Source: a virus (Duplodnaviria; Caudoviricetes). Taken from it: a DNA stretch of 29,186 bases. A model generated the notes under the pieces. It ran no database searches. It was not told the DNA's origin and worked only from the letters and a program-made list of their open reading frames with translations. Position 1 is the first letter of the stretch. Each line of letters starts with the position of its first letter. The position numbers and the translations under genes are program-made. Below, piece by piece: positions 12,619 to 29,186 of the stretch. Location of the stretch: the IMG/VR virus record IMGVR_UViG_3300037467_000879, positions 1 through 29,186 of that record; one strand, written 5' to 3'.

Positions 12619-12828
12619 TCATGCCGCTTCCGACTTCGGCTCAATGGGCTCCCATTCGCGCGGCGGAACCTTGCCGTCGGTCGCCCGCTCGATCCTCAAC
12701 GCTAGATCGAGGCCAGGCCGAAGATTGCCCGCGACCAAGCGACTGACCGTCGCATCGGTGGTGCCAACGCGAGCAGCGAATTCCGTCTGCTTCTCGCCGG
12801 TCTCTTCCAAATAGTCGGTGAGTTTCAT
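12619..12828 (-). CDS. cro: Cro-like XRE HTH protein
   Basis: MKLTDYL...QTEFAARVGTTDATVSRLVAG...IERATDGKV; divergent from cI. Confidence 0.9.
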   Translation of the reverse strand: MKLTDYLEETGEKQTEFAARVGTTDATVSRLVAGNLRPGLDLALRIERATDGKVPPREWEPIEPKSEAA

Positions 12829-12836
12829 GACCGCGC

Positions 12837-12872
12837 ACATTACGCATTGCGAAAATTTACGCAAGCCGCAAT
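12837..12872. promoter_or_regulatory. OR-like operators and cro promoter
   Basis: TTACGCATTGCGAAAA at 12840-12855 and TTACGCAAGCCGCAAT at 12857-12872. Minus-strand TTGCGT...TAATGT lies just upstream of the cro ATG. Confidence 0.7.
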
Positions 12873-12886
12873 TTTCGTGCGGCGGC

Positions 12887-13570
12887 ATGGATTTGATCTT
12901 CGCTGTGGATGAATTGTCGCCCGTGGCGGGGAACAATCTCAAGGCAATACGAAAACGCGCCAAGCTCACCCAGGGCGACATTGCCGAGCGCCTCGGCGTG
13001 TCTGTTCCACAGGTCAGCCGTTGGGAAGCCGGCGGGGACAATATCCCGAGCAACCGGCTGTCAGCCATCGCAGAAGCCTACGGCACTTCGATCGGCGAGA
13101 TTTTCGCGACCGCGGAAGAATATCAACCTGCCGGACCGCGGCTATTCGTAAAGGGCCGCGTGGCTGCGGGCATCTGGATTGACGCCTGGCAGGTGAATGC
13201 AGACGATTGGGAGGTTTACACCGGCCGCGCGGACGTAAGCGCCTCCGTCAGAAAGCGGTTCGGGCTCCGCGTTGTCGGCGATAGCATGAACCTCATTTAT
13301 CCTCCGGGCACCATCCTCGATTGCGTCGAATATGACGGCGAGCACATGATAGAATCGGGGAAGCGGGTCATCGCGGTTCGGCACCGCCAGGATGGGAGCG
13401 TTGAGGCGACGGTGAAGGAGCTCGTGCGCGACGAAGACGGCACTGAATGGCTCGTGCCGCGCTCGACGAATCCACAGTTCAACGCCTTCAGAGGTGATCG
13501 ACCAGATTCGCCCGACATCACGCGGGTTGAAATCGTCGGCATTGTTGTGGCTTCAATTAGACCGGAGTGA
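12887..13570 (+). CDS. cI: CI-like repressor (XRE HTH plus S24 autopeptidase)
   Basis: LKAIRKRAKLTQGDIAERLGVSVPQVSRWEAG HTH, VAAG cleavage site, GDSM Ser and TVKEL Lys. Exact start uncertain (ATG 12887 or a downstream GTG). Confidence 0.93.
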   Translation: MDLIFAVDELSPVAGNNLKAIRKRAKLTQGDIAERLGVSVPQVSRWEAGGDNIPSNRLSAIAEAYGTSIGEIFATAEEYQPAGPRLFVKGRVAAGIWIDAWQVNADDWEVYTGRADVSASVRKRFGLRVVGDSMNLIYPPGTILDCVEYDGEHMIESGKRVIAVRHRQDGSVEATVKELVRDEDGTEWLVPRSTNPQFNAFRGDRPDSPDITRVEIVGIVVASIRPE

Positions 13571-14815: not shown

Positions 14816-15018
14816 CCCTGCACCTCGTCAGCGATAACCAGCACCCGGGCACGAGCCTGCACGAGAGATTCGAAGCCCATGATCGGCACTGGCACGACGT
14901 CGAGCCCCGCACCTTCGCGCTGACGGCCGACGAGATCACGCTCTTCTGTGGCGCGTGCTTCGGCGCCGGATGCCTTTTCACCACTGCGGCCGCTTGGGTG
15001 CTGTCATGGTACATCTGA
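14812..15018 (+). CDS. Small protein with C-terminal hydrophobic segment
   Basis: MTLHLVSDN...; ATGA coupling. Confidence 0.65.
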   Translation: MTLHLVSDNQHPGTSLHERFEAHDRHWHDVEPRTFALTADEITLFCGACFGAGCLFTTAAAWVLSWYI

Positions 15019-16007
15019 CCGAGGGCGTTCACGACATCAGCGAGGCGGAATATCACGCCGACTGCTGTCCCGCGCCGTCGCTGAGCTCGACCATCGCCAA
15101 ACTGCTCGTCGATCGCTCGCCCTGGCACGCTTACTGGAATCACCCGCGCCTAAACCCGGCTTTCGAGCCGAAGGAAAAGGAGGCGTTCGACCTCGGCTCC
15201 GCATTCCACAAGCTGATGCTTGGCAAGGGCGCGGACATTGCCGAGATCGCCGCTGACGATTGGCGCACTAGCGCGGCCAAGCAAGCACGCGAGACGGCGC
15301 GAGCGATGGGGCACATTCCGATGCTCTCGCGCCAGCTGCGCGCTGCCGAGCGCATGGTCGAGGTCGTGCAAAGCCAGGTCGAGCGGCACGAGGAAGCGCA
15401 TGACGCGCTGAAGGCTGGCATTCCCGAGCGAACGCTGATCTGGCGCGAGGACAATGGCGTGTGGTGTCGTGCGCGCCTCGATTGGATGCCACACTTCGGC
15501 ATTGCCTATCCGGATCTGAAAACGACCGCCGCCGCGGCGTCGCCCGACCAATGGGGCCGCAAGGTGATGTTCGACACCGGCTGCGACATTCAGGACGCCT
15601 TCTATCGGCGTGGCCTGAAGAAGCTCGGCATCAATGAGCACGCCTTCCTGCTGTTTGTCGTCGCTGAAGTCGACGAACCGTTCGCCATGGCCACGCATCG
15701 CCTTGCCCCCGGCGCGATGGCCATGGCGGACAGGAAGGTCGAGCACGCGATCAAGCTGTTCGGGCTGTGCCAGGAACGGAACTGGTGGCCGGGTTATCGG
15801 ACGGAAACGGCCTGGCATGACCCGCCGCCGTGGCACGAGCAGCGCTGGATTGAGCGCGAGGACGACGGCAGCTTCGACGCCGCGCTCGCCGAACTGGCTG
15901 CAATCAAGCCGCGCCAACGAACAGCAGAGGACCATCAGGCATTCGAGGACGCAGACCAGCGCGACGCCTTCGGATTGCTGCCAGTGAAAGAGGGAATTGC
16001 GAAGTGA
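15006..16007 (+). CDS. RecE/ExoVIII-like PD-(D/E)XK exonuclease (DUF3799-like)
   Basis: EYHAD...SLSST, LGSAFH, PERTLIW, CRARLDW, PDLKTT and IQDAFY motifs. Confidence 0.9.
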   Translation: MVHLTEGVHDISEAEYHADCCPAPSLSSTIAKLLVDRSPWHAYWNHPRLNPAFEPKEKEAFDLGSAFHKLMLGKGADIAEIAADDWRTSAAKQARETARAMGHIPMLSRQLRAAERMVEVVQSQVERHEEAHDALKAGIPERTLIWREDNGVWCRARLDWMPHFGIAYPDLKTTAAAASPDQWGRKVMFDTGCDIQDAFYRRGLKKLGINEHAFLLFVVAEVDEPFAMATHRLAPGAMAMADRKVEHAIKLFGLCQERNWWPGYRTETAWHDPPPWHEQRWIEREDDGSFDAALAELAAIKPRQRTAEDHQAFEDADQRDAFGLLPVKEGIAK

Positions 16008-17401
16008 AGCTCAGGATGCAAGGCGCAGAGCGCAAGGCGAAGATCACGAAGCTCAGCGACGAGCAATGGGCGGAAATCCTCGCATATCGTGACGAGGCGC
16101 TGAGGAAGGCGCTGACGCCCGGCCCCGCCGACATCGAGGCGGCGCGCCTGGCCTTCGACAAAATGTGCGATGCCGTCGGGGAAAAGCGTCGGCCGATCTT
16201 CCGCTTCAGCAGCCCCCTGATCGCCATCCTGGCAATGCCGTTCGTGATCTCGGCGCTGACGCAGCAGCAACTCCCTACAGTTGCTGAACGCCAGCTCGAC
16301 AGCCAGCTCCGCAGCCAGCTCGGCAGCCAGCTCGGCAGCCAGCTCGACAGCCAGCTCTACAGCCAGCTCCGCAGCCAGCTCGGCAGCCAGCTCCGCAGCC
16401 AGCTCGACAGCCAGCTCGGCAGCCAGCTCCGCAGCCAGCTCGACAGCCAGCTCGGCAGCCAGCTCTACAGCCAGCTCGACAGCCAGCTCCGCAGCCAGCT
16501 CCGCAGCCAGCTCGGCAGCCAGCTCCGCAGCCAGCTCGACAGCCAGCTCGGCAGCCAGCTCGACAGCCAGCTCTACAGCCAGCTCCGCAGCCAGCTCGGC
16601 AGCCAGCTCTACAGCCAGCTCGACAGCCAGCTCCGCAGCCAGCTCCGCAGCCAGCTCGGCAGCCAGCTCCGCAGCCAGCTCGACAGCCAGCTCGGCAGCC
16701 AGCTCGACAGCCAGCTCCGCAGCCAGCTCGACAGCCAGCTCGACAGCAAGCTCGGCAGCCAGCTCGACAATGCGACCTATTATCGCCGTTACGGTCACTG
16801 CGAGATGGGCTGGTGGGCCTACTGGCGCGGCGGAGAAATGGCCGGTGCATTCTACTCGCACGCCGAGCGCGAACGACTCGGATGGTGGCTCACGGTCAGC
16901 GAGACCTGCGGCTGGTGGTGGCCAATGGAGAGCTGCATCATCGTCGCCGGTAGACCTGAAACGCGCTGGGACGATCAGCGGCTCCTGCACTGCGAGAACG
17001 GCCCGGCGATCGACTTCGACGATGGCTGCGAGGTTTATTCATGGCACGGCGTCCAGGTCCCCAAGGAATGGATCACCGAGAAGGCGATTACGCCGCAGCA
17101 GGCTCTTACCTGGGAGAATATCGAGCAGCGCCGCGCGGCCTGCGAGATCCTCGGCTGGAACCGTATCATCAGCGAGCTCGGCGGCATCACCATAGACCGG
17201 GACGACGACCCGCAAGTCGGCGAGCTGATCCGCGTAGCCATTCCCGAGATCGGCGAGGAAAAGTTCCTGCGCGTGCGCTGCGGAACCGGGCGCGAATTCG
17301 CGCTGCCGGTGCCTCCGAACATGAAGACGGCACTCGAGGCAAATGCATGGACCTACGGGATCGACGGCAACGCGCTGCGCGGTCTCGAAGTACGAACCTG
17401 A
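16004..17401 (+). CDS. DUF6745-type protein with 40 internal SQL[D/R/G/Y] tetrapeptide repeats
   Basis: N-terminal KLSDEQWA..YRD...PAD...SP, then the repeat block, then CGWWWP...LHCENGPAIDFDDG..VYSWHGV...NIEQRRA...VPP...A.AWTYG...RT. GTG start overlaps the nuclease stop. Confidence 0.85.
   Translation: MKLRMQGAERKAKITKLSDEQWAEILAYRDEALRKALTPGPADIEAARLAFDKMCDAVGEKRRPIFRFSSPLIAILAMPFVISALTQQQLPTVAERQLDSQLRSQLGSQLGSQLDSQLYSQLRSQLGSQLRSQLDSQLGSQLRSQLDSQLGSQLYSQLDSQLRSQLRSQLGSQLRSQLDSQLGSQLDSQLYSQLRSQLGSQLYSQLDSQLRSQLRSQLGSQLRSQLDSQLGSQLDSQLRSQLDSQLDSKLGSQLDNATYYRRYGHCEMGWWAYWRGGEMAGAFYSHAERERLGWWLTVSETCGWWWPMESCIIVAGRPETRWDDQRLLHCENGPAIDFDDGCEVYSWHGVQVPKEWITEKAITPQQALTWENIEQRRAACEILGWNRIISELGGITIDRDDDPQVGELIRVAIPEIGEEKFLRVRCGTGREFALPVPPNMKTALEANAWTYGIDGNALRGLEVRT
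16289..16768 (+). repeat. 40 x 12-bp in-frame tandem repeat AGCCAGCTC(GAC/CGC/GGC/TAC)
   Basis: Counted directly: 480 bp, variable codons D x13, R x12, G x11, Y x4. The constant part differs only in unit 1 (CGC) and unit 39 (AAG). Confidence 0.98.
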
Positions 17402-17424: not shown

Positions 17425-17790
17425 ATGAAGGAATTCAAGAAAATTGCGGCGCAGGGCGACATGATGCTGATCCGCATCGAGGTACTGCCCGAGGGCGCGC
17501 AGGAAGTTGCGGCGGTCAACGGCCGGCACACGCTGGCCCATAGTGAGACGGGCCACGATCACATAGTGATGGAGCGGCCGACCGTTCGCGCCTTCAAGGC
17601 GATGGATGAGTTTCAGGCAATGCTCGAAGGTCGCCCGGCGCTCTTCCTCGTGGTCGAGGACGAGCCAGCAGAGCTTAAGCACTTGCGCGATTTCGACACG
17701 CACGAGAGCGTCAAAATCGAGCCCGGCATCTACGAGGTCAGGCGCCAGCGGGAATATACGCCCGAGGGCTTCCGGCGGGCGGCTGACTGA
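17425..17790 (+). CDS. His-rich conserved protein (QGD...HSETGHDH...H...RRQREY), partner of the DUF6745 gene
   Basis: AAGGAG RBS; MKEFKKIAAQGDMML...LAHSETGHDH...LKHLRDFDTHESVKIEPGIYEVRRQREYTPEGFRRAAD. Confidence 0.85.
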   Translation: MKEFKKIAAQGDMMLIRIEVLPEGAQEVAAVNGRHTLAHSETGHDHIVMERPTVRAFKAMDEFQAMLEGRPALFLVVEDEPAELKHLRDFDTHESVKIEPGIYEVRRQREYTPEGFRRAAD

Positions 17791-17792
17791 CC

Positions 17793-18809
17793 GTGACCTT
17801 CTCATTCCGTCCCGCACGCCGCGAAGGCGTTCCGCTACTCATCGGGCTTGCTGGCTCGTCGGGGAGCGGCAAGACCTACAGCGCGCTCGAGCTCGCCACC
17901 GGCATTGCATCCGTGACCGGCGGCAAGATCGCCTTCATCGACACGGAGCGGCGGCGCGGGCTGCATTACGCCGACCGCTTCGACTTCATGCACGCCGAGC
18001 TGGACCCGCCGTTTCGTCCTGGCCGCTACGAGGAAGCGCTGAAGGCCGCCGAGGACGCGGGCGTGTCTGTCGTCGTCGTCGACAGCTTCAGCCACGAATA
18101 TGAAGGCGAAGGCGGGATCCTCGATTGGGCCGCCGAAGAGGAGCGCGCGGGCAAGAAACCGCCATCGCAATGGATCGTGCCGAAGTCCGCGCACAAGGGT
18201 CTCGTCAACCACATGCTGCGCGCCAAGCCGCACATCATCGTCTGCCTGCGCGCCGAAGAGAAGATGCAGCTCGTCCGCAAGCCGAAGCTCGACCGCGACG
18301 GCAATCAGGAAATCTGGAAGGGCAAGCCGCAGTTCATCACAGAAGTGATCGCCGCCGCCGACAGGCCGATCGACGAGCGCTGGCATCCGATCTGCGAAAA
18401 GCGCTTCCCGTATGAAATCACGACGTCGCTGCTGCTGCTGCCGAGTAACCCGGGCGTGCCAGTCCCGCTGAAGCTGCAGGAGCAACACAAGGCAGCGTTT
18501 CCGAATGGCCAGCCGATCACGCGCGAGGCCGGGCGCTTTCTCGCTGCCTGGGCAAAGGGCGAGCCGGTGAGCACACCGAGTCCGCAAGCCGAAGGGCGCG
18601 CTCCCTCGCGAGACGAAGCCAGTGAGGACTGGACGCGCAAATATATCGCCAAGGTCGAGCAGTGCCCCGACATCGAGGCGCTGATGGCGCTGCAGGCGCG
18701 CTGGTCGGAGAACCTGGCTGGGCTCAAGAGCGCTCGGCCGGACCTGCACGATCAGGCCGTCGACGCCGGCAGCAAGCGGGCGCGCGAGCTTCAGGAACTG
18801 GCGGCATGA
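17793..18809 (+). CDS. AAA_24/Sak4-like P-loop ATPase (phage recombination)
   Basis: Walker A GSSGSGKT, IDTE, Walker B VVVVDSFSHE; in the same operon as the RecE-like nuclease. Confidence 0.88.
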   Translation: MTFSFRPARREGVPLLIGLAGSSGSGKTYSALELATGIASVTGGKIAFIDTERRRGLHYADRFDFMHAELDPPFRPGRYEEALKAAEDAGVSVVVVDSFSHEYEGEGGILDWAAEEERAGKKPPSQWIVPKSAHKGLVNHMLRAKPHIIVCLRAEEKMQLVRKPKLDRDGNQEIWKGKPQFITEVIAAADRPIDERWHPICEKRFPYEITTSLLLLPSNPGVPVPLKLQEQHKAAFPNGQPITREAGRFLAAWAKGEPVSTPSPQAEGRAPSRDEASEDWTRKYIAKVEQCPDIEALMALQARWSENLAGLKSARPDLHDQAVDAGSKRARELQELAA

Positions 18810-20074: not shown

Positions 20075-20262
20075 CGGCGCGCGCCACCTTCCGCCAGGAT
20101 GACGTTTCCCGTGCATGTAAGGGCGTGAAGGCGGCCGGACTGCCGGTCGCCCGCGTCGTCGTTGTGGAAGGCCGGATCGAGGTTATTGTCGGCGATCCCG
20201 AGTCGGACATCGACGCGCCGGCTCCCAACCCGCTGGACCGGCTGCATGGCGAAGAATCGTAA
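20071..20262 (+). CDS. Excisionase-like small protein
   Basis: GGAGG RBS; FRQDDVSRACKGVKAAGLPVARV...GRIEV pattern typical of genes directly preceding alphaproteobacterial phage integrases. Confidence 0.65.
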   Translation: MTARATFRQDDVSRACKGVKAAGLPVARVVVVEGRIEVIVGDPESDIDAPAPNPLDRLHGEES

Positions 20263-21334
20263 GCGCGACAAATACACATCGTTCGTCGTTGACCGGCACG
20301 GCCGCGAGCGATGCCGCTTCAGGCATGGCGGCGTGGATTGCTATCTGCCGCACCCGGCGACACCCGAATATCGCGCGGCCTACCAAGCGGCCCTCGCTGG
20401 CATCGTGCCCGACGCCGAGCCGAGGCATGTCCCGAAGTCGATCGGCGACCTGGTCAGCCGCTTCTATCGCAGCGCCACGTTCCTGAAGGCAGGGGAAGCG
20501 CATCAGCGCACCGTGCGCGGGATCATCGAACCGTTCCGTGCCGAGTTCGCCAACGACCTGGTCCCCAACTTCAAGTTCGATCACGTCGAAGTCATCCTGA
20601 AGCGCAAGGCGAAGAAGCGCATCGTTGGCAACCGGACGATTGGCGGTCCCGCCGCATCGTCAAACCTTCACGAGCAGCTGAAGCGGCTGTTCGCTTATGC
20701 GATGCGGCTCGGATGGATCAGCCGCAACCCGGCAGAAGAGGCGGAGCTGCCGGTCAAGCCCGCGCGCGTTGGCTTCCACAGCTGGACCGAGGAAGAGATC
20801 GCGGCATTCCAGCAGCGGCACCAGCTAGGCACGAAGCCTCGGCTCGCGCTCGAGCTGATGCTGTGGACGGGCCTCAGGCGCAGCGATGCCGTCCGCGTCG
20901 GGCCGCAGCACATCAAGGGCGGCCGGATCCGGCTCACGGCGGGAAAGACCGGCAAAATGGTCGACATGCTCGCAGCGCCGCCGCTGATCGCAGCGATTGC
21001 CGCGATGCCGGCCGTCGGCATGACGACGCTGCTCGTGACGGAATATGGGCGGCCATTCACGGCCGCAGGTTTTGGGGGATGGTTCCGCGATAGGTGCAAC
21101 GAGGCTGGACTGCCTCATTGCACGGCGCATGGGCTGCGGAAGGCCCTGGCACGTCGCGCTGCCGACTTGGGCGCCACTCAGCAGCAGCTGAAGGCGGTCG
21201 GGCAGTGGTCCAGCGACGGCATTGTGGCGACTTATGTCGCTGATGCTGAGCAGCGTGCGCTAGCGGACTCAGCAGTCGGTAGAGTGATTGAGTGGAGCGC
21301 CGGATTGTCCAACCTTGAGGGGGAAAAACCGTGA
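20246..21334 (+). CDS. int: Tyrosine integrase
   Basis: DRHGR N-terminus, TGLRRSD (Arg), GKTG (Lys), HGLRK, GQW and ATY (Tyr). Confidence 0.96.
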   Translation: MAKNRKRDKYTSFVVDRHGRERCRFRHGGVDCYLPHPATPEYRAAYQAALAGIVPDAEPRHVPKSIGDLVSRFYRSATFLKAGEAHQRTVRGIIEPFRAEFANDLVPNFKFDHVEVILKRKAKKRIVGNRTIGGPAASSNLHEQLKRLFAYAMRLGWISRNPAEEAELPVKPARVGFHSWTEEEIAAFQQRHQLGTKPRLALELMLWTGLRRSDAVRVGPQHIKGGRIRLTAGKTGKMVDMLAAPPLIAAIAAMPAVGMTTLLVTEYGRPFTAAGFGGWFRDRCNEAGLPHCTAHGLRKALARRAADLGATQQQLKAVGQWSSDGIVATYVADAEQRALADSAVGRVIEWSAGLSNLEGEKP

Positions 21335-21485: not shown

Positions 21486-22988
21486 CTAAGGCGCCGGCAC
21501 CACGACGTGATCGGGGAAATCCTGCGGCCACGGCGGACCGTTGGCGCCGATGATCTGCGTCCCGTTGCATTGGTCGCCGCCCGAGCCGCTGAGCTTCAGG
21601 TTGATACAGTTCGCGTGCCACGTCGCCTTCACCGTCGGGGACCAGGCTTCCCAATAATCCATGTGCCAAGTCGCGCCCGGAACGGCATTCGGCACCATCT
21701 CATCGCTCGACAAATGCCACTTGCCTGCGACGAAATTCGCGTCGGTGCGGAAGGCCGCCTGAACTTCGAGACTATCGATCAGGTACGGATGCGTTGTCGG
21801 GCAAGCGCGAAAGAACTGTCCCGCGTACATCGGCCCGTCAGCCATGCGCATGTGGCTGCGGTGGTCAGCTGAATCGACGTTCACTCCGTCCCAGCAGATT
21901 GGAGCAGCGGCGATGATCATCAGCAGAGCGCCGGAGGGACAGCCGGCCGCGCGCACCTCCTCGATATTGTGGTAGTAACCGGCGCCAGGGAAGCCCGGCG
22001 CGCCATCGTTTGTGGCCCAGCACTGATAGGTGATCGCGCCGCTGTCTTGGCTAGACAGATCGTTCGGGCCGCCGACGCCGGTTTTCATATTGTAGCCGAA
22101 CACGAAGCGGATGCCGTTGGGGAGATCCGTGCAGTTGCCGATGCCCCCCAGTTCCGGCGGCTTGCACATCGGATCGCTCTTCGGATTGCGCTTGTAATAG
22201 ACCTTGAGCCAGTTCGGCTTCACGACGCCATCTGCGCCGTCCATCATAGCCGGCATCCAATAAGCGGAGCGATTTTCCGGCACCGACCCGATGTCGCACG
22301 TCGAATCGCCAGTCGTGCGGAGCGAGGTGTAGTTCGAGCTCGCGTTCGCGCCCAGGTTGCCGAAGAACTGATGCAGGTGCGAAACGCCCGGCTGGCCCGG
22401 ATAGACGAGCGGATCGTCCTTGAGCAGCTGACCGGCGCCGCAGAAGAGGCGGAATGCGCCCACGGGATCAGCGCTCGCTGGCGCGATGCCACCGCGGCCG
22501 AGAGGTCCGTACCAAGTCTGCTCGATCCCTGCGGCCGTGTCGAAGTTGTCCGTGATGGCCGCCTCGCCAGTGGGACCGGGCAACGGCGTAGGCGTAGGCG
22601 TCGGCGCAGGAACTGGCGCGGGCTCAACGATGCTCCCGATCGCGCGCACAACCGACGATCCGCCGGCGACGGCCGCATTGAACGTGAGCGTGCCGGCCGC
22701 GTTCGCATTGGCCAGCGTGTGAACGGCTATGCTGAACGATGACGTGCCAGCGCTCAGATAAACCTGCTTGCTGACCGCCGTGTAGTCGGTGCCAGCTTTC
22801 GCGGTGTCGTCCGACGTCTGGAACAGGACATAGACGCCCTTGCCGCCCGAGACGCGGCTGATCGAGCACGGAACGTCCTGGCCAGCCGGAGCCGAGCCGC
22901 AGGCGAGAGAGAGTTGAGGGAGCGCCGCCCCGGCCGGAGTTGCGAGGGCAACGATGAATGCCGCAATGGCCGGCCGGAGCGCGCGCAT
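21486..22988 (-). CDS. Secreted Calx-beta + DUF1996 domain protein
   Basis: Signal peptide MRALRPAIAAFIVALATPAGA; TSDDTAKAGTDY Calx-beta motif; Pro/Thr linker; DDPLVYPGQPGVSHLHQFFGN, NRSAYWMP, PICWDGVNVDSADHRSHM and CPTTHP DUF1996 motifs. Confidence 0.85.
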   Translation of the reverse strand: MRALRPAIAAFIVALATPAGAALPQLSLACGSAPAGQDVPCSISRVSGGKGVYVLFQTSDDTAKAGTDYTAVSKQVYLSAGTSSFSIAVHTLANANAAGTLTFNAAVAGGSSVVRAIGSIVEPAPVPAPTPTPTPLPGPTGEAAITDNFDTAAGIEQTWYGPLGRGGIAPASADPVGAFRLFCGAGQLLKDDPLVYPGQPGVSHLHQFFGNLGANASSNYTSLRTTGDSTCDIGSVPENRSAYWMPAMMDGADGVVKPNWLKVYYKRNPKSDPMCKPPELGGIGNCTDLPNGIRFVFGYNMKTGVGGPNDLSSQDSGAITYQCWATNDGAPGFPGAGYYHNIEEVRAAGCPSGALLMIIAAAPICWDGVNVDSADHRSHMRMADGPMYAGQFFRACPTTHPYLIDSLEVQAAFRTDANFVAGKWHLSSDEMVPNAVPGATWHMDYWEAWSPTVKATWHANCINLKLSGSGGDQCNGTQIIGANGPPWPQDFPDHVVVPAP

Positions 22989-27399: not shown

Positions 27400-27561
27400 G
27401 TGACTGACGATGAAAAGCGCTTGTTGATGCGGGTCGGTCAGGCCACAAATAAGATCGCGATGAACGTGATTATTCCGCCCGGAACATTTGCGATCGGCAT
27501 CGCCACCTCAATCATCGTGCCGCCTGGACTATTTTTGCTCGCACTAGTCCTAAGCCGCTAG
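27400..27561 (+). CDS. Putative 53-aa hydrophobic peptide antisense to the tail operon (not in ORF track)
   Basis: GTG...TAG open frame spanning a lower-GC intergenic gap: MTDDEKRLLMRVGQATNKIAMNVIIPPGTFAIGIATSIIVPPGLFLLALVLSR. Confidence 0.35.
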   Translation: MTDDEKRLLMRVGQATNKIAMNVIIPPGTFAIGIATSIIVPPGLFLLALVLSR

Positions 27562-29186
27562 CGCGAAGCCCCGGCCGACGGTCGAGCTGATCTGATAGGC
27601 TTTGATGTTCGGCGGCGTCGGCAGGGTGATGCCGTCCGCAGCAGCCATTGCCGCCGTGTAGGTGAAGATGTTCGTGCCGCTCAGTGGAATTGTCCGCTTG
27701 AACGTAACGCCGTTGTAGATGTCGACCTCATAAGCCTCGGTGGTCTCGCCGAGCGCAATCGTGCCGCCGCCGCTCGTCCAGGAGCCGCCAACGCGTGTCC
27801 GGCGCGTGATCGTGCCCGTGAGGTTCGTGCCATCCCAAGCCCATTTGACGCTTGCGGGCGCATAGGGCTTGAGCGTGTTCGCCGCGAAGGTCAGGTCGAT
27901 CTCCACGGCCGAATCCACATCGCGGCCGAGCGACTGCACCTTGAACGCCAGCCCCATCCCAATCTGGTCGGTGCCGATGGTCTCCGCTGCCGCCCCGTTC
28001 AGCACGAGCAGCAGGTCGCCCGCGGTGTGCGTTCCGACGTTCCCTTCAGTGCCGCGCCGGCCGCGTTTGAAGCCGCTGAGCGTGTAGAGGTTGGCGTTGC
28101 CGCTCGTGCCAGTCAGCGTGGCCGTAGCGAACTGCAAAAACTCCCACCTTCCCACGTCGCCGAGGGCAACGAGGTTCAGCGACGGGTCGGCATTGATTTC
28201 GGCTTCGGTCGCGCTCGTCAACGTCCCGAACACGGAAAGACTGAGCGTGTTGCCTCGGTCCCAAAGGTTCGGATTTGCCGAGCCGAGCGTCGATGAGGCG
28301 AGACCCCAGGTCGCGCGGTGAGCATCGTCGACCGAAGCGAAGATCGTACTGAAATCTCCGCCCACGCCTTCGTTGACAGTCGCGCCTGGCCATGTTCCGC
28401 CGTAGCTGCCGGCTGCATAATAGATTACCGGGTTGACGTCGTTATCGGCGTCACGAACGAGCGGAGCATCGAGAATGAAGCCCTTGCTCGGCGATGGAAC
28501 ATAAATCGTCTGCACTGGCTGATTGTTCGCCGGAGCGCCAGCTGTCGCCGAATTGAGCAGCGCAACCGAACTTTCGTCGCGCACCCATTCGCATTGCAGG
28601 CCGTCCTTGCCGATCGTCAGCTTATTCAGGCGGACGTTGCGCATGCGGCCGTCGAGCGAGAGCGTCGTCACGTCGCCGGGCTCAAACGCGAGGTGCTGCG
28701 CGGTGAGCTTGTTTTTAGTCGTGTCTCGGCTGATCCAGGAGCGCTGCAGATAGCGGTCCGCTTTCTGCTGCGCCCCGTCGGCATGATCCGCCCAGGTTGA
28801 GAGGTCGACGGTCTCTTCGCGCGTCGTATCGACGGCGTCGAACGGCCGCTGCGCGATGGCATTGTTCGGCTGCTGCTCGTGATCGACGTCGGCGAAGTTG
28901 AAGGTCAGCTTCCGCGGCAGATCCGTGTCCTGCGTGATCGTCACGGTGTAGCGATCTTCGGAGCCCGACCTCACGAAGTCTTCAGTCAGGATGGTGCCGG
29001 AAGGCGCGGCGCCACGGTTGACGAACTGGACGATGAAATCATGTGGGCGGCAGTCGACGTCGTGAATGTCGAGCAGCGGGCCGATCATGTCCTTGCCCGA
29101 GCCCTGGCTCACGGAATATCCGAGCACCGTCTGCGTCAGCGCCGACGTGTCCTGCCCGGTGAGGCCGCACCAGCCTGCCACGGTAT
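27550..29186 (-). CDS. GTA g15-like tail tip / host-specificity protein (5' end beyond window)
   Basis: QDTDLPRKL, LAFEPGDV, LDAP, WEFLQFATATL, LSGFKRGRRGTE, RRTRVGGSW, LGETTEAYEVDI and YQISSTVGRG motifs. Confidence 0.88.
   Translation of the reverse strand, partial: TVAGWCGLTGQDTSALTQTVLGYSVSQGSGKDMIGPLLDIHDVDCRPHDFIVQFVNRGAAPSGTILTEDFVRSGSEDRYTVTITQDTDLPRKLTFNFADVDHEQQPNNAIAQRPFDAVDTTREETVDLSTWADHADGAQQKADRYLQRSWISRDTTKNKLTAQHLAFEPGDVTTLSLDGRMRNVRLNKLTIGKDGLQCEWVRDESSVALLNSATAGAPANNQPVQTIYVPSPSKGFILDAPLVRDADNDVNPVIYYAAGSYGGTWPGATVNEGVGGDFSTIFASVDDAHRATWGLASSTLGSANPNLWDRGNTLSLSVFGTLTSATEAEINADPSLNLVALGDVGRWEFLQFATATLTGTSGNANLYTLSGFKRGRRGTEGNVGTHTAGDLLLVLNGAAAETIGTDQIGMGLAFKVQSLGRDVDSAVEIDLTFAANTLKPYAPASVKWAWDGTNLTGTITRRTRVGGSWTSGGGTIALGETTEAYEVDIYNGVTFKRTIPLSGTNIFTYTAAMAAADGITLPTPPNIKAYQISSTVGRGFALAA

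Follow-up and report, generated by a model that had tools for sequence, protein, structure and literature searches.

How does a phage gene come to carry forty near-identical copies of a twelve-base unit in which one codon alone is free to vary, and what might the encoded tract be for? The gene lies in a stretch of 29,186 nucleotides, here called the window, which spans positions 1 to 29,186 of the viral record IMGVR_UViG_3300037467_000879 (Duplodnaviria; Caudoviricetes). A first-pass annotation, made from the letters of the window, read the tract as a homogenised array that changes length in frame, and saw in it a possible modular code, ruler or long leucine-striped helix. I asked how these readings fare once the gene is compared with its relatives, their neighbours and predicted structures.

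The array and its gene

The array (16289..16768, plus strand) consists of 40 in-frame units of 12 bp, each encoding S-Q-L-[D/R/G/Y], inside the open reading frame 16004-17401, and is the sole tandem array in the window (TRF, score 723). Its 40 units, codon alphabet and unit order are exactly as first annotated, the variable codon being GAC in 13 units, CGC in 12, GGC in 11 and TAC in 4. The reported invariance of ten of the twelve bases extends to 38 of the 40 units and breaks down in unit 1, which starts with CGC (Arg), and in unit 39, which carries AAG (Lys); the reported lack of synonymous drift holds throughout, with no synonymous difference among the 40 units. Single-base steps join the four variable codons (TAC-GAC-GGC-CGC), so three point mutations are enough to yield them all. 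Identical units stand side by side less often than chance would have it (0.10 versus 0.25, p=0.014, for one of 20 lags tested).

Units 14-23 (16445..16564, plus strand) recur exactly as units 26-35 (16589..16708, plus strand), an identity of 130 bp at an offset of 12 units. This longest repeated block of 10 units compares with a shuffle mean of 4.5 (p=0.001), and recent change must therefore have included block duplication, beyond the slippage of single units. The figure of 40 units is that of the assembly: no listed public contig spans the array, and a 130-bp duplication can confuse short-read assembly. Pattern scans of viral and metagenome collections, from which near-identical records may be absent, gave no match to the window's own array start. 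Three long shadow ORFs over the array, at 15935-16990 (minus), 16275-16850 (minus) and 16281-17195 (plus), were rejected as genes; they are long because the unit is free of stops in those frames.

The gene that carries the array (16004..17401, plus strand) encodes 465 aa from a GTG that overlaps the stop of the upstream gene (GTGA), and the database protein starts at the ATG at 16016 and has 461 aa (P0002). It belongs to PF20530, or DUF6745 (E=8e-28; 97.6 bits versus a curated cut-off of 27), and to phrog_31813. Ahead of the array lies a conserved N-terminal domain (16004..16288, plus strand), recognised from alignments and modelled with a pLDDT mostly of 83-96. Behind it lies the C-terminal DUF6745 domain (16769..17401, plus strand), recognised from PF20530, alignments and models, which ends in an invariant E-x-R-T tail and is predicted to bind a partner. 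Database matches of the array itself to MSCRAMM, DUF826 and HsdS were rejected as compositional; the last of these, the only PADLOC match of the protein, puts the array on the HsdS helix and is likely compositional.

Arrays across the family and selection on the variable codon

The C-terminal domain has 938 relatives, and arrays, which had been treated as peculiar to the window locus, occur family-wide. Five or more units, by a loose pattern, were found in 29 of the 118 homologues retrieved with the C-terminal domain, and fewer than five in the other 89; arrays are present in 14 of 27 distinct viral loci retrieved with the same domain (L001-L029) and, among 76 cellular loci selected through the partner gene described below, in 43. 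The query behind the locus set L030-L109 was biased towards arrays. For allele counts I used 79 arrays, comprising 1,779 units, after dropping duplicates, the irregular arrays of L039, L105, L121 and L137, and arrays of fewer than eight units; the arrays share descent, and the counts are not independent events. The comparison among DUF6745 homologues that had been suggested as a check reveals a family trait, with 8-62 units per array, 42 different 9-bp constant cores and a recurring chemistry at position 4.

All four third-codon positions are monomorphic in 55 of the 79 arrays. Extra amino-acid alleles, each present in at least two copies, number 61, 10, 7 and 180 at positions 1 to 4 of the unit, and extra synonymous codons number 4, 3, 9 and 3. 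Scaled by opportunity, position 4 has 180 extra amino-acid alleles over 169 non-synonymous sites (about 1.06 per site), and all positions together have 19 synonymous alleles over 223 sites (0.085 per site). These family codon statistics support the earlier view that the units are homogenised.

The states allowed at position 4 are few and recurrent. Arrays whose variable codon ends in G (n=44) contain Trp in 41 cases, Arg in 41, Gly in 39 and Glu in 12, and those ending in C or T (n=35) contain Asp in 30, Tyr in 28, Arg in 24 and Gly in 12. The codon box switches at least 11 times on a FastTree tree, and an aromatic residue with Arg, Gly or Asp/Glu recurs across these switches; the C-terminal domains of L004 and L032, for example, are 81% identical and are attached to the alphabets D/R/G/Y and E/R/G/W, respectively. 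The window's four codons appear on the same core again in L004, L035 and L131. Measured against a one-step mutation walk, an aromatic residue is present in 31 of 34 arrays versus 8.9 expected, and any of V/L/I/M/A/P/T/C in 3 of 34 versus 23.4 expected. The array is a genuine feature that selection acts on, and the data support selection for variety at position 4, neutral drift predicting the opposite pattern.

Alternatively, the array might be a self-expanding minisatellite with no effect on fitness, sitting in a surface loop that tolerates it, and its length differences might partly be assembly noise. Such an element would fit the 89 of 118 homologues with fewer than five units, the contigs that often break inside the array and the mere three point mutations needed for four codons. 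However, its spread should favour synonymous variants, the reverse of what is observed; the alphabet departs sharply from the mutation walk, and arrays also appear in records titled like complete or long-read assemblies (L135 and L153). I give this explanation only a slight chance.

Length, order and shape

Four database proteins with letter-identical N- and C-terminal flanks carry 22, 28, 40 and 42 units, which bears out the in-frame length variation that had been proposed. The 22-unit form equals units 1-8 plus 27-40 of the 40-unit form, and the 28-unit form equals units 1-23 plus 36-40, both being deletions between internal repeats (of 70 and 130 bp, respectively). Collapse during short-read assembly could account for the 28-unit form, most easily, and possibly for the 22-unit form; recombination would also produce exactly these deletions. 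The 42-unit form has two units added after unit 22, giving unit triplets absent from the 40-unit form with only 22 bp of homology at the indel (the DNA being assumed from the protein), and since the triplets are new and the homology so short, an assembly-graph error is an unlikely cause.

Contigs from individual samples bear on the same point. Logan contigs of four runs end inside the array, and none of the pieces listed spans it. For run X2, the word depths of four listed pieces (1.06, 1.23, 2.85 and 0.88) are nearer to those of the 28-unit form (1, 1, 3.29 and 1) than to those of the 40-unit form (1, 2, 4.29 and 1.58), a weak hint that is independent of assembly. Word depth, again a weak guide, fits about 40 units in five of six pieces of run X1 and is too high in one; runs X3 and X5 have little depth, and no allele matches X5 well. 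Real variation of the array between samples is likely. The left-flank contig of X1 ends at window position 16309, ten bases before those of X2, X3 and X5, and immediately ahead of unit 2's variable codon, which would fit a branching of the population at that point. A frame shift lies inside the arrays of L029/L181 and L137, either through assembly error or as a real frameshifted allele.

The order of units behaves quite differently from their composition. Among pairs with at least 72% identity in the C-terminal domain, the longest shared run of units beats shuffles in only two (at 90% and 99% identity), and the same test of the window array against its two nearest relatives gives p=0.21 and p=0.95. 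Relatives keep the composition and not the order, which fits either an order that is irrelevant or one that is under diversifying selection.

This result weighs on the idea of a modular code, in which each unit would fold as a module and, through its variable residue, recognise a single element of some periodic target (DNA, a glycan or a filament, for instance). The four-state variable residue on a constant frame is what such a code would need, its chemistry is conserved across cores, and identical neighbours are under-represented family-wide (241 versus 279 expected of 964, with 34 of 46 arrays below expectation). Against it, a unit of four residues cannot be a folded module, a TALE repeat having about 34 aa. 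The AlphaFold2 model contains no solenoid; unit order in relatives at 72-93% identity does not exceed the shuffled level except in one listed pair, large blocks are deleted on identical flanks, and many homologues lack the repeat or have it detached. With its unit size, its model and its unconserved order, the array falls outside the TALE and PPR types, and a code of this kind seems extremely improbable.

As for shape, AlphaFold2 renders the array as two long helices at a pLDDT of about 50-77, versus about 90 for the core. On an alpha-helix a four-residue period drifts by 40 degrees per unit, so that a leucine stripe would circle the helix every nine units, and the 100-degree hydrophobic moment, 0.30 for 11 residues, is down to 0.08 for 36 and to 0.04 for the whole array of 160. 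This geometry contradicts the earlier picture of a long helix with its leucines in a single unbroken stripe. The strongest hydrophobic period is 180 degrees, where the moment stays at 0.65, and this suits a beta-strand no less than a helix. The array could consist of short amphipathic segments or make a beta-type ladder, but it cannot present one long amphipathic face.

A partner protein and its predicted complex

The first-pass annotation missed the gene that follows (17425..17790, plus strand), which encodes 121 aa with conserved QGD, His39/44/46/86/93 and RRQREY motifs and belongs to phrog_27831 (E=2e-11). This partner shares a locus with DUF6745 in 77 of 82 viral loci, downstream in 57 and upstream in 20; conversely, DUF6745 is present in 76 of 79 loci picked by the partner, and in the window the two genes are adjacent. 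The pair is also carried by the cultured Microcystis phage LMM01 (gp174/gp175) and the prophage prophiGD102-1 (gp38/gp37). In prophiGD102-1, gp38 has a 45-unit Q-L-x-x array at the same insertion site as in the window, whereas gp174 of LMM01 has the same domain and partner without an array. The pair is a widespread two-gene module for which I found no description in print: searches on DUF6745, PF20530, phrog_31813 and phrog_27831, to which most of the subscription literature was closed, found no paper describing function, array or partner, and a general literature search on phage tetrapeptide repeats returned unrelated works only.

The partner is modelled as mostly beta (pLDDT 86), and its His46, His86 and His93 are invariant in both alignments. 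Its best fold match by VIA-align (Z=4.1, rmsd 3.5, 84 residues aligned) is at the level of a common arrangement; the DUF6745 model gave only generic long helices in that search, which barely tested its core domains. Foldseek against the PDB returned nothing at E<=0.001 for either model, and sequence search found no solved structure, two glycine-cleavage H rows at E 0.35-0.41 being disregarded. A BFVD search with the partner found one uncharacterised homologue, the Atlas search returned only DUF6745 or unnamed clusters, and the partner matched none of the PADLOC models.

When the two proteins were modelled together from alignments of 55 loci, the complex scored 0.62, versus 0.01 for the best of three controls. 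Among solved complexes 116 of 157 attain that mark, and among mismatches 2 of 215 do, a rough calibration only, as the alignments were custom-made. Three runs share at least 90% of contacts, and the partner keeps a pLDDT of 81 in the complex. The closest predicted contacts involve W445-G448, L430-P433 and the L457-T461 tail of DUF6745 (P0002 numbering) and Q10/G11, I7-A9 and R106-Y111 of the partner, with His86 and His93 also at the interface, and they sit on conserved residues. The model thus supports binding of the partner to the C-terminal domain of DUF6745; a metal site at the interface is a guess. Among the confident contacts are no array residues, and L22 of the N-terminal domain is one of them, which suggests that the two domains come together on the partner with the array looped out.

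The geometry of this complex matters for a second alternative, a molecular ruler in which the number of units would fix how far apart, or at what angle, the N- and C-terminal domains stand. The precedent is the TAEL repeat of the type IC HsdS subunits EcoR124I/II, where an in-frame unit of 12 bp encodes four residues and specificity changes with the number of copies (as described in the available part of PMC3874165). Like TAEL, the array has this unit size and is inserted in frame between two domains; both of its arms are modelled as long helices, and a juxtaposition model has been proposed for gp54, a phage protein considered below (PMC9262239, in excerpt). Against this, TAEL has two or three identical units in the excerpted account, whereas DUF6745 arrays have non-identical units with a selected variable residue, which a ruler does not need, and lie in an unrelated protein, flanked by DUF6745 and not HsdS domains. 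The model puts L22 and the C-terminus on the same partner with the array between them looped out, many members have no repeat, and in some loci it stands apart in mini-genes. With array lengths anywhere between 8 and 62 units, the ruler floated in the earlier annotation is very unlikely.

Detached mini-genes

Among 31 viral DUF6745 genes without the repeat, 18 have small ORFs of x-Q-[V/L]-x units nearby, whereas none of 48 genes with an array does; the other 13 repeat-less loci have no mini-gene inside the 2.5-3 kb flanks examined. These putative mini-genes show that the repeat can exist in trans, and up to nine different versions stand side by side in one locus (L084). The exclusion comes mostly from one clade (14 of 19 in one 23-row group), and independent contrasts of mini-gene against array leave 3 pairs on starred branches (sign test p=1). 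I set aside a Fisher p of 7.5e-10 for the exclusion because it fails this phylogenetic test; repeated compensation is not supported by the contrasts. The mini-genes are tandem, of about 45-100 codons, with x-Q-V-x or x-Q-L-x units, and loci that have them include L005, L006, L010, L013, L058, L070, L072, L078, L084 and L108. Their alphabet looks wider than that of the fused arrays.

Comparison with known phage repeats

The combination found in the window, a 12-bp array between two domains with invariant third positions, non-synonymous variation and variable copy number, is also that of gp54 of mycobacteriophage Tweety. According to the available part of PMC2884959, gp54 has 48 units of 12 bp with invariant third positions, read there as selection for variation, and its relatives have 26 units in Che8 (gp57) and 15 in PMC (gp51); my count on the Tweety gp54 record agrees at 48 units. 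In gp54 as in DUF6745, N- and C-terminal domains surround a 12-bp in-frame array and, as far as the excerpted account goes, variation falls at first and second codon positions only, the states include aromatic, Gly and polar residues, and copy number varies between phages. The gp54 gene lies to the right of the integrase, among small non-structural genes. In contrast, two positions vary in the gp54 unit, A-A-x-x, and none of its residues is charged; the genes on either side of gp54 show no match to the His partner, and the 155 phage records matched are all mycobacteriophages. Since gp54 has no homology to the DUF6745 profile (E=1.4), the window locus is not a member of its family: as far as sequence comparison can tell, it is built like gp54 and lies outside the gp54 family. 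To a type of array known since Tweety gp54, the window adds four length forms on identical flanks and codon-level evidence that the alphabet is convergent.

What makes the likeness useful is that gp54 has a reported function. Two reviews report escape mutants that have gained or lost units and thereby adjust their counter-defence to particular prophage defences (excerpts of PMC9262239 and PMC8549241), the mechanism of the repeat being called obscure in the excerpted 2021 review (PMC8549241). A counterpart of that function in DUF6745 would be by analogy only, and it is by likeness to Tweety gp54 alone that a role in phage-host conflict is plausible.

Other variable phage loci resemble the array less closely in one respect or another. 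VR2 of Bordetella phage BMP-1 (bbp36) is described, in the available part of PMC2884959, as a non-essential in-frame repeat with a few alternative spacers and 9-20 copies by isolate; its unit is 24 bp, and it can be likened to DUF6745 by that description only. In the excerpted account of PMC12633550, phage contingency loci are hypermutable repeats in phage genes that are attributed to polymerase slippage and cause reversible frameshifts, whereas the DUF6745 array changes in length and content within frame. A target of a diversity-generating retroelement was also considered and rejected: the adenines of the AGC and CAG codons are constant and it is G and C positions that vary. There is no second copy of the 9-bp core in the window, and no match to the reverse transcriptase PF00078 in the record, which is 77% complete.

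A proposed role

A third alternative is that composition is all that matters. The array would then be a low-complexity, charge-balanced, sticky tract of aromatic residues plus Arg, perhaps disordered, a beta-ladder or condensate-forming, that serves as a spacer, multivalent scaffold or non-specific decoy with order and length nearly neutral. The conservation of composition without order is what it predicts; acidic, basic and aromatic residues occur together in 59 of 79 arrays, the window array has a net charge of +1, the 180-degree period is strong and model confidence modest, and such repeats have been linked to unstructured proteins (PMC2884959, in its available part). However, nine mini-gene versions side by side, as in L084, would be costly if any would do, charge balance is loose across the family (L041 has 3 basic versus 15 acidic residues), and the Tweety escape mutants are defence-specific (PMC8549241, in excerpt). 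On balance I regard this explanation as somewhat unlikely.

The explanation I favour, tentatively and at a little less than even confidence, is that the array is a variable binding arm on a heterodimer of DUF6745 and the His protein, which the phage would use against its host. Changes in length and order, and the homogeneity of the constant bases, would come from slippage or from unequal recombination among units and blocks, and selection would keep position 4 a mix of an aromatic residue, Arg and Gly or Asp/Glu. The place of the gene between repressor and integrase suggests expression early or in the lysogeny phase. The partner is predicted to be bound to the C-terminal domain, leaving the array outside the interface. 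Three to four units might form a short amphipathic segment seated on the core, and a long array might offer many interchangeable registers, with detached mini-genes giving the same in trans; both are guesses. Such an arm may then let the phage keep pace with a target in the host, which would most likely be a defence protein.

A broader version, which I consider unlikely, makes DUF6745 and its His partner a widespread counter-defence platform with a plug-in variable helix, either built from an array or supplied in trans from a library of mini-genes, whose alphabet has converged often through repeat recombination alone, with neither reverse transcriptase nor recombinase. If true, it would resemble a minimalist binder library. 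Either way, the build of gp54 recurs in an unrelated and far more widespread family with a conserved partner, and members in culture or in isolates (Microcystis phage LMM01; Sphingobium and Rhizorhabdus isolates), together with repeat-less and detached forms, make length, order and composition testable. If the arm recognises host defence proteins, it would represent a new route to rapid diversification besides diversity-generating retroelements, invertible segments and frameshift contingency loci.

Phage context and other family members

The record is a temperate phage. The arm that carries the pair is headed by a CI-like repressor (12818..13570, plus strand; HTH_3 plus Peptidase_S24) and ends with a tyrosine integrase (20162..21334, plus strand; PF00589, phrog_1), and the terminase, portal, protease and capsid genes lie on the opposite strand. 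The pair itself stands between an upstream exonuclease VIII-like gene (14955..16007, plus strand; PF12684, phrog_412) and a downstream AAA_24 ATPase gene (17793..18809, plus strand; PF13479, phrog_1366). Because the closest relative of the C-terminal domain (79-81%) is on a contig of a Sphingomicrobium MAG, the host is likely alphaproteobacterial. At least half of the region's words were found in 12 of the 13 runs listed, which are soil, rhizosphere or plant metagenomes; no RNA run holding the region is among those 13, and promoter and terminator scans gave results at chance level or uninformative. Beyond the integrase, on the minus strand, are a 500-aa protein with DUF1996 and Calx-beta domains, a signal-like start and a Pro-Thr linker (21486-22988) and a tail protein with Phage-tail_3 and Rcc01698-like domains (27550-29184), as in alphaproteobacterial gene transfer agents and related phages.

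Neighbours in 31 cellular loci (99 proteins) are mostly prophage recombination, integration and repressor genes, with no third gene common to these loci. Leucine-rich repeats replace everything ahead of the C-terminal module in two loci from Oxalobacter MAGs, L128 (2794-3966) and L141 (304-1548), and other cellular members have long non-repetitive inserts. In L139 and L146, a DUF6745 gene with such an insert lies right behind an HTH-S24 repressor-like gene in surroundings that do not look like phage. Four chromosomal regions from actinobacterial-sample genomes were examined, and in two (L202 and L203) a DUF6745 gene and a 108-codon neighbour adjoin STM4013/STM4015-family genes, a setting that shows no obvious tie to phages and counts against the favoured explanation. 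L120 and L188 each have two DUF6745 paralogues, with one partner gene found per locus. Finally, a hexapeptide-repeat protein lies beside the pair in L173 (5678-6340), and a protein with DUF7666 and collagen repeats in L181 (1221-2477).
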